DNA of 64,000 nt from Escherichia coli (GTDB lineage: Bacteria > Pseudomonadota > Gammaproteobacteria > Enterobacterales > Enterobacteriaceae), in NCBI RefSeq assembly GCF_045037415.1, contig NZ_CP173438.1. One strand, written 5' to 3'. The position numbers were made by a program. Positions 1,171-2,702 of this stretch are shown here, in pieces. How positions within the stretch are numbered: the first letter of the stretch is position 1; each line of letters begins with the position of its first letter.

Positions 1171-2702
1171 TAATGATTTCTCGCGCGGGCAATCTTGCCC
1201 GCGCTTCTGCTCTCCCGGCGTAACCCGGATTTGCCGCTTATACTTGTGGCAAATGGACACGTTCAGGGAGGCATCAAGTGAAGAAACTCACCGATAAGCA
1301 AAAGTCCCGTCTCTGGGAGCTTCAGCGTAATCGTAATTTCCAGGCCAGTCGCCGTCTTGAAGGCGTCGAGATGCCTTTAGTCACTCTTACTGCCGCAGAG
1401 GCTTTAGCGCGCCTTGAAGCGCTGAGGAGGCACTATGAGCGATAAATTCGGCGAAGGGCGCGATCCATATCTCTACCCGGGTCTCGATATCATGCGTAAC
1501 AAGCTCAACATCCGCCAGCAGCAGCGGCTGGAACAGGCCGCTTACGAAATGACGGCGCTGCGTGCTGCGACCATTGAGCTTGGTCCGCTGGTGCGCGGTT
1601 TACCGCATTTGCGCACTATCCATCGCCAGCTGTATCAGGATATTTTCGACTGGGCAGGGCAACTGCGTGAAGTTGATATTTATCAGGGAGATACGCCGTT
1701 CTGCCACTTTGCCTATCTCGAAAAAGAGGGCAATGCCCTGATGCAGGATTTGGAGGAAGAGAAGTATCTGACTAGCCTTGAGAAAGATAAATTCGTCGAG
1801 CGGTTGGCGCATTACTATTGTGAAATCAACGTGCTGCATCCCTTCCGGGTGGGAAGTGGTTTGGCACAGCGGATCTTCTTCGAGCAACTGGCGATTCATG
1901 CCGGATATCAACTGAGCTGGCAGGGTATCGAAAAAGAGGCCTGGAATCAGGCAAATCAGAATGGGGCAATGGGGGATCTCACCGCGCTGCAGATGATATT
2001 TAGCAAAGTGGTAAGCGAAGTCGGGGAATCTGAGTAAAATAGCGCGGTTCTTTCGTACCGGAGCCGCCATGATCCTGCTTATTGATAACTACGATTCTTT
2101 TACCTGGAACCTCTACCAGTACTTTTGTGAACTGGGGGCGGATGTGTTGGTTAAGCGCAACGATGCGTTGACGTTGGCGGATATCGACGCCCTTAAACCA
2201 CAAAAAATTGTCATCTCACCCGGCCCCTGTACGCCAGATGAAGCCGGGATCTCCCTTGACGTTATTCGTCACTATGCCGGGCGTTTGCCGATTCTTGGCG
2301 TCTGCCTCGGTCACCAGGCAATGGCACAGGCATTTGGCGGCAAAGTTGTGCGCGCCGCAAAGGTCATGCACGGCAAAACCTCGCCGATTACACATAATGG
2401 TGTGGGCGTATTTAAGGGGCTGGCAAATCCACTCACCGTGACACGCTACCATTCGCTGGTGGTGGAACCTGACTCATTACCGGAGTGCTTTGAAGTGACG
2501 GCCTGGAGCGAAACCCGCGAGATTATGGGGATTCGCCATCGCCAGTGGGATCTGGAAGGTGTGCAATTCCATCCAGAAAGTATTCTTAGCGAACAAGGAC
2601 ATCAACTGCTGGCTAATTTCCTGCATCGCTGATTTCTGATTGCTATTAAGTGATTTTTTATGCATATTTTGTGATTATAATTTCACATTGGTTTATGCGT
2701 AA

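Follow-up and report, generated by a model that had tools for sequence, protein, structure and literature searches.

We describe here the yhfG-fic gene pair found in a stretch of 64,000 nucleotides of Escherichia coli DNA (contig NZ_CP173438.1 of assembly GCF_045037415.1), hereafter the window. Very probably this region is the yhfG-fic (ecficA-ecficT) operon of the E. coli chromosome, which is a Fic module of class I domesticated in the Enterobacteriaceae. The encoded proteins are not mere lookalikes: they are EcFicT itself, founder of the Fic proteins, and its partner EcFicA, the names given to Fic and YhfG by Stanger, Harms, Dehio and Schirmer (PLoS One 2016; PMC5033356). A superfamily with tens of thousands of members is named after E. 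coli Fic, and the fic-1 mutant was described more than 40 years ago. The Fic signature motif of the protein is degenerate, and this is the main clue that E. coli Fic does something other than AMPylation. Degenerate motif, inhibitory helix of YhfG and structure of the complex were all published in 2016; observing them here is correct, but not new.

yhfG (ecficA) extends from position 1278 to 1445 of the + strand, on which all features of the window given below lie unless otherwise indicated. It starts with GTG, and its 55-amino-acid product is a small Fic partner that belongs to the class I type of Fic antitoxins. fic (ecficT), which starts with ATG at 1435 and ends at 2037, encodes a FIC-domain protein of 200 amino acids, the founding member of the Fic family. 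The stop of yhfG and the start of fic share 11 nucleotides (ATGAGCGATAA, 1435-1445), a geometry that suits translational coupling. The overlapping pair claimed in a preliminary description of the window, made from the sequence alone, is thus borne out. At 31 nucleotides 3' of fic lies its conserved neighbour pabA (2069-2632), coding for aminodeoxychorismate synthase component 2, the local order on the E. coli chromosome being ppiA-yhfG-fic-pabA-argD.

Both yhfG and fic are real genes and not chance open reading frames, as they pass the cutoffs of Pfam and of NCBIfam. Fic matches PF02661 (Fic) with 51.4 bits and 2.1e-13 (Pfam cutoff 24), and the NCBIfam equivalog NF007672 with 422.6 bits (cutoff 181); YhfG matches PF10832 (YhfG) with 86.3 bits and 1.3e-24 (cutoff 22.6), and the equivalog NF007573 with 126.6 bits (cutoff 77). 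Membership of Fic in the FIC superfamily follows from the PF02661 match and from the presence of the core loop H-x-F-x-x-G-x-G-x-x-x-R that joins helices 4 and 5. In a search of the PDB, Fic matched 29 solved Fic chains, among them 5jfz_A over residues 1-200 (3.4e-129), and YhfG matched 5jff_B/5jfz_B (2.5e-29). The conservation of starts, overlap and Shine-Dalgarno sequences across four genera leads to the same conclusion: the 11-nucleotide overlap is identical in the Salmonella, Klebsiella and Leclercia loci, and Klebsiella yhfG starts with ATG at the very position of the E. coli GTG. A region of 1.2 kb is 100% identical to that of E. coli strain 4/1-1. Among 5426 complete E. coli genomes, 5425 contain the locus, under the annotation ppiA / yhfG (or ficA) / fic / pabA, and the reading frames are intact in 5422 of the 5426 (coverage of at least 80%).

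The signature motif HPFRVGSGLAQR corresponds to amino acids 135-146 of Fic and to nucleotides 1837-1872 (the H135 codon starts at 1837), and is to be compared with the canonical HxFx(D/E)GNGRxxR. H135, F137, G140, G142 and R146 are kept, while V139 takes the place of the acidic residue, S141 that of the Asn and L143 that of the first Arg (R1), in agreement with the V, S and L replacements that had been pointed out in the preliminary description. Three of the five polar positions thus fail to conform to the canonical AMPylation motif. Position 5 of the motif, where canonical AMPylators have the acid that coordinates Mg2+, is V139, aligned to E139 of Fic-1 from Pseudomonas bijieensis 2P24; position 7, an Asn in these enzymes, is S141, and members of the subgroup have either S or N; and in place of R1, the binder of the ATP beta-phosphate, there is L143, with L, M or I in 120 of the 120 closest clusters. 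The catalytic His (H135) and R2 (R146, nearly invariant in the alignments) are present. HPFRVGSGLAQR aligns column for column with HPFREGNGRAQR of Fic-1 (PDB 8WT0) and with the motif of other canonical relatives. Upon scanning the 64-kb window in six frames no canonical motif was found, HPFRVGSGLAQR being the sole H.F..G.G...R match, which rules out that Fic carries the canonical motif elsewhere in the protein.

YhfG carries the inhibitory-helix motif [S/T]xxxE[G/N] in the form SRRLEG (amino acids 24-29, codons at 1347-1364), a feature supported both by the sequence and by its conservation in homologues: SRRLEG occurs in 107 out of 120 YhfG homologue clusters, and the general motif in 116. The small separate upstream protein with an inhibitory helix, whose gene overlaps fic, is characteristic of class I Fic modules. 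The complex with a Glu-R2 salt bridge is attributed to the pair by virtue of its near identity to the published structures 5JFF and 5JFZ, and every feature of class I architecture that was examined is present. In K-12, EcFicT associates with EcFicA in a stable 1:1 complex with a melting temperature (Tm) of 63 C, solved in crystals 5JFF and 5JFZ; SRRLEG, located where the first EcFicA helix ends, enters the active site of Fic, and S24 and E28 contact R146 (R2), as happens in VbhA/VbhT (PMC5033356). The resemblance to antitoxin-Fic modules that the arrangement of the genes had evoked finds support in SRRLEG and in these contacts, and the complex structures rule out that YhfG is unrelated to Fic.

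The proteins of the window are 95.5% (Fic) and 96% (YhfG) identical to those of the K-12 structures. All residues of Fic named in PMC5033356 are present (D10, P11, Y12, A36, T40, G55, Y67, F71, E79, Y83, E107, N132, H135, R138, V139, L143, R146, A178 and M179), and so are S24, R25 and E28 of YhfG; none of the substitutions with respect to K-12 affects a described functional site. Fic shows moreover the features of the EcFicT-like subgroup 3 of enterobacterial FicT (Stanger 2016); these are hydrophobic residues at R1 and at D/E, A36, T40, Y67, F71, DPY at the N-terminus, Arg as R0, and the position between ppiA and pabA.

Two sets of relatives were considered. In the first set, which comprised the nearest 120 Fic clusters, with identities of 76-96%, the motif is degenerate in all 120 clusters and conforms to HPFR[LIVF]G[SN]G[LMI]xQR, one of them with Cys at R0. 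The set of distant relatives consisted of the best 150 representatives, at 50% clustering, from an exhaustive search of 1.84 billion representatives. The canonical motif is present in 115 of these best 150, every one of them with 48% identity or less, a range in which most relatives are canonical, and their HPFREGNGRxxR aligns exactly over HPFRVGSGLAQR. In two representatives (P0246 and P0249) a motif could not be recognised; these resemble metagenomic sequences laden with errors or frameshifted, and were set aside. The published account likewise has EcFicT-like proteins descending from canonical AMP-transferases and forming a vertically inherited enterobacterial subgroup placed between ppiA and pabA; it describes the EcFicT motif as degenerate, with R1 changed to Leu, D/E to a hydrophobic residue, and Ser or Asn at the central position (PMC5033356).

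The order tsgA-ppiA-yhfG-fic-pabA-argD-yhfK is common to E. coli, Salmonella, Klebsiella and Leclercia and recurs in Enterobacter and Buttiauxella, where yhfG and fic are a single fused gene. Such conserved order, and the presence of the locus in 5425 of 5426 E. coli genomes, do not correspond to the patchy, horizontally acquired and non-syntenic distribution of mobile type II toxin-antitoxin modules. Ratios of non-synonymous to synonymous substitutions (dN/dS) between genera, calculated according to Nei-Gojobori, were 0.04-0.10 for fic, 0.05-0.20 for yhfG and 0.05-0.09 for pabA, values that are approximate since synonymous sites are near saturation between genera (proportion of synonymous differences, pS, of 0.6-0.75). 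From these comparisons, yhfG and fic clearly appear to be under strong purifying selection, and positions conserved specifically in the subgroup are numerous in Fic. With both genes selected in this manner, the altered site of Fic must be taken as a state that is maintained, not as decay.

The only new angle of our analysis is a comparative one, and concerns relatives in which YhfG and Fic form a single chain; these fusions could be used as natural experiments on the need for the partner to dissociate. Representative P0242 (57-66% identity) has about 28 N-terminal residues that correspond to YhfG (70% identity, E 1e-11), joined to Fic near residue 32, and is encoded by one gene of 603 nucleotides that sits between ppiA and pabA, a separate yhfG being absent. 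When the search was seeded with P0242, 40 of 117 clusters were fusions. Proteins of a first type, from Buttiauxella, Dryocola and Scandinavium, are 199-200 amino acids long and combine SSRLD(I/V) with the motif HPF(F/L)VGSGRAQR (HPFFVGSGRAQR); those of a second type, from Enterobacter huaxiensis and E. hormaechei, have 194 amino acids, SCLLEK and HPFMSGNG(I/V)xQR; a singleton has 195. The NCBIfam YhfG model matched the fusion proteins only at positions 1-28. Genome contigs of Enterobacter and Buttiauxella contain the single fused gene at the syntenic ppiA-pabA site. The fused genes of the relatives extend over 1011-1613 in locus L006, 2501-3085 in L007 and L008, and 2501-3103 in L009. The Enterobacter fusions are probably subgroup 2 of Stanger 2016, defined by a distinctive N-terminus, a 5-residue deletion, the absence of DPY and a non-Arg R0; nowhere in the text of that paper is subgroup 2 called an antitoxin fusion (PMC5033356). 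Two E. coli-like proteins from Logan assemblies, P0002 (252 amino acids) and P0006 (233 amino acids), also show both the YhfG and the Fic Pfam domains and are 96% identical to Fic of the window; these are probably calls produced by frameshift or read-through at the 11-nucleotide overlap, and not true fusions.

When compared with characterized systems, the pair differs from EcFicT/EcFicA of E. coli K-12 (5JFF, 5JFZ) only as an allelic variant, sharing with it the genes, the locus, HPFRVGSGLAQR, SRRLEG and all specificity-determining residues described. Fic-1/AntF (8WT0; match of 1.3e-47) likewise combines a class I Fic and a small inhibitor encoded upstream, and is colinear with our pair in lengths and numbering (H135 and R146; S24 and E28 in the partner). 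In contrast, Fic-1 has the canonical HPFREGNGRAQR and AMPylates GyrB, which the complex deAMPylates, and its residues E29, E36, E139 and R143 are absent from Fic of the window. VbhT/VbhA of Bartonella schoenbuchensis (3SHG, 3ZC7, 3ZCB; match of 7.6e-33) is a Fic toxin-antitoxin pair in which the [S/T]xxxE[G/N] helix of the antitoxin blocks R2, and the root-mean-square deviation between its fold and that of EcFicT/EcFicA is 1.36 A (PMC5033356). VbhT, unlike EcFicT, is a proven AMPylator of gyrase and topo IV, with a C-terminal BID secretion domain, and VbhA consists of three helices; in YhfG there are two and a loop, with an 8-residue deletion. The Doc kinase and the phosphocholine transferase AnkX are precedents of deviations from the Fic motif accompanying a changed donor or chemistry (PMC5033356). 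They were compared by means of the PDB search list only; no specific likeness in sequence goes beyond the fold, and the motif of the window matches neither variant.

The signals that would direct expression of the pair are also conserved. Within a block of 22 nucleotides (TTGCCGCTTATACTTGTGGCAA, 1231-1252), 21 positions are invariant among E. coli, Klebsiella, Leclercia and a Buttiauxella-like fusion locus, while the surrounding intergenic region has diverged. The block, located by phylogenetic footprinting across genera, holds the hexamer TATACT (1239-1244), known from the literature (Utsumi 1993 and Tanaka 1995, quoted in PMC5650638) as the -10 of a fic promoter that depends on sigma-S and needs no -35. 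A scan of positions 1100-2150 for sigma-70 consensus promoters gave no matches, an outcome explained by the sigma-S dependence and lack of a -35 of the published promoter. The Shine-Dalgarno sequence of yhfG (AGGGAGG, 1265-1271), 6 nucleotides 5' of the GTG, is invariant in four genera; that of fic (GAGGAGG, 1424-1430) lies within the 3' end of yhfG, and AGGAG(G/T)CACTATGAGCGATAAAT is conserved in four genera. Between ppiA and the yhfG-fic promoter there is a GC-rich hairpin (GCGCGGGCA-ATCT-TGCCCGCGC, 1183-1204) which is a probable ppiA terminator. Its predicted RNA fold has -20 kcal/mol (z = -4.96), none of 200 shuffles being as stable, and a GCGCGGG...CCCGCG hairpin is retained in Salmonella, Klebsiella and Leclercia despite differences in loop and stem sequences; a scan for consensus terminators missed the hairpin because its T-run is weak. 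Terminator-like matches inside fic were dismissed, as they lie in coding sequence under purifying selection and have poor T-runs. Considering the gap of 31 nucleotides and the common strand, co-transcription of pabA with fic is plausible. A literature search for a connection between fic and pabA or folate returned solely a table entry, 'Fic (PABA or folate)'.

Taking these data together with the published ones, the pair may operate as follows. A single mRNA would start at the conserved, -35-less TATACT promoter, which depends on sigma-S according to the literature, and the internal Shine-Dalgarno sequence and the overlap suggest that YhfG and Fic would be translated from it in a coupled manner. 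The first helix of YhfG, with SRRLEG, sets Ser24 and Glu28 on Arg146 of Fic, as the published structures show and just as VbhA does on VbhT. Fic retains the FIC fold, His135, the glycine anion nest and R2, deprived of the Arg for the beta-phosphate (L143), of the acid for Mg2+ (V139) and of the Asn (S141). The most likely function would then be a His135-dependent reaction, or tight binding, with a non-ATP ligand and gated by YhfG; the ligand might combine a hydrophobic moiety with a phosphate or diphosphate. We infer that a function depending on His135 is retained because His135, the anion nest, R146, N132, the flap and the YhfG glutamate are conserved under purifying selection. That the protein is either not an adenylyltransferase or uses a different chemistry had been proposed from the motif, and is supported by the work of Stanger and colleagues, who detected no auto- or target-adenylylation by EcFicT, also when the inhibition motif was mutated (YhfG E28G), attributed the inactivity mainly to Leu at R1 and to the hydrophobic residue at D/E, and proposed a non-ATP substrate (PMC5033356).

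Several points weigh against this interpretation. The different chemistry would be deduced from a conserved pocket, and the dN/dS values that underlie the argument are approximate, as stated above. In addition, two reviews list E. coli FicT among the toxins that inhibit growth or adenylylate gyrase (PMC10886550, PMC7758455), statements that conflict with the lack of adenylylation reported by the primary authors (PMC5033356). The pair may or may not behave as a true toxin-antitoxin system; its genes are vertically inherited and syntenic, unlike typical mobile modules. These reviews, the homology to VbhT and Fic-1, and the filamentation of the fic-1 mutant would speak for Fic being a genuine, cryptic FicT toxin which, once freed from YhfG, AMPylates gyrase and topo IV like VbhT, YeFicT and Fic-1 do. 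We regard this as very improbable: not only were both auto- and target-adenylylation negative in the hands of the primary authors, with negative assays already reported for antitoxin-free protein on GyrB/ParE, but R1 and the Mg2+ ligand are gone, the degenerate motif is fixed across the subgroup, and inheritance and synteny are not those of a mobile module. That the motif belongs to a decaying relic gene, an idea whose sole support is the loss of key residues, is already refuted by the data on selection and conservation; dN/dS of fic (0.04-0.10) is comparable to that of pabA, the frames are intact in 5422 of 5426 genomes, and many positions are conserved specifically in the subgroup.

Fic might also be a pseudoenzyme devoid of any catalysis, its FIC fold serving, together with YhfG, as a scaffold for binding or regulation. 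Replacement of three out of the five polar residues with which the motif binds or catalyses would fit, as would the absence of activity even with YhfG E28G, the viability of the fic knock-out and the phenotype of fic-1 (G55R), filamentation which looks like a gain of function (PMC5033356). We nevertheless consider it unlikely, as the subgroup, fusions included, shows little or no variation at His135, the G140/G142 anion nest, R146, N132 and the flap, and as Glu28 of YhfG is kept in 116 of 120 clusters; plugging an active site that is dead makes little sense. A quite different role for that glutamate is suggested by the Fic-1-AntF complex, which shares the residue numbering and deAMPylates GyrB in a reaction that requires E28 of AntF (PMC13327609, 2026). 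By analogy with it, and with class II FICD/EfFic, the YhfG-Fic complex might be an active eraser, i.e., a deAMPylase-like hydrolase with Glu28 as a catalytic residue. R1 binds the ATP beta-phosphate, which an AMP-protein substrate does not have, and would therefore be dispensable for hydrolysis; the high stability of the complex (Tm 63 C) and the relatives with the YhfG helix permanently fused to Fic would fit a partner that is not meant for release. This proposal is nonetheless improbable, and was ranked low because the acidic cleft essential in Fic-1-AntF (E29, E36 and E139, plus E28 of AntF) is replaced by Q29, A36 and V139 in Fic of the window. The Fic-1-AntF reaction is moreover metal dependent, whereas the metal-binding acid of the motif is missing here, and an AMPylating writer for such an eraser is not known in E. 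coli K-12. A broader proposal, to which we give equally little credence, is that YhfG is an obligate subunit rather than a releasable antitoxin, and YhfG-Fic a constitutive stationary-phase holoenzyme, its active site comprising His135 and Arg146 of Fic and Glu28 of YhfG, and its substrate a non-ATP phosphodiester; it may, for instance, remove nucleotidyl or phospho-linked groups or use a hydrophobic diphosphate donor. Its support is indirect, and consists in the permanent helix fusions of at least two sequence types found in relatives at this locus, the precedent of the Fic-1-AntF deAMPylase, and strict vertical inheritance next to pabA.

With respect to allelic variation, Fic of the window has nine substitutions when compared with K-12 (R23K, H27R, I95L, G110K, V113T, G114S, A118D, S176N and A196V) and YhfG has two (E48A and S51R). 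In 561 of 5425 genomes the allele is at least 99% identical to that of the window. The codon of Gly55 (GGT, 1597-1599), site of the classical fic-1 filamentation allele (G55R), is wild-type. Single-nucleotide differences between this fic and that of K-12 are clustered, with 9 in 40 nucleotides (1467-1506) and 14 in 55 (1750-1804), the latter cluster encoding the surface stretch EEEKYLTSLEKDKF, whose K-12 counterpart is EEEGYLVGLEKAKF. The within-species pS of fic is 0.139, and the 178 nucleotides upstream (3' end of ppiA and intergenic region) show zero differences. These data suggest that fic of the window is a mosaic or recombinant allele.

Two other features of the window deserve mention. 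The gene of the cAMP receptor protein, crp (6146-6778, - strand), lies about 4 kb from fic ('filamentation induced by cAMP'), with pabA, argD and yhfK between them; position alone provides no evidence of a functional link between crp and fic. The gene gspO (26686-27358, - strand), which encodes the prepilin peptidase of the type II secretion cluster, is divided into two overlapping open reading frames (27358-27017 and 27087-26686) as the result of a frameshift, in agreement with its annotation as a 'frameshifted' pseudogene in the identical reference genome.

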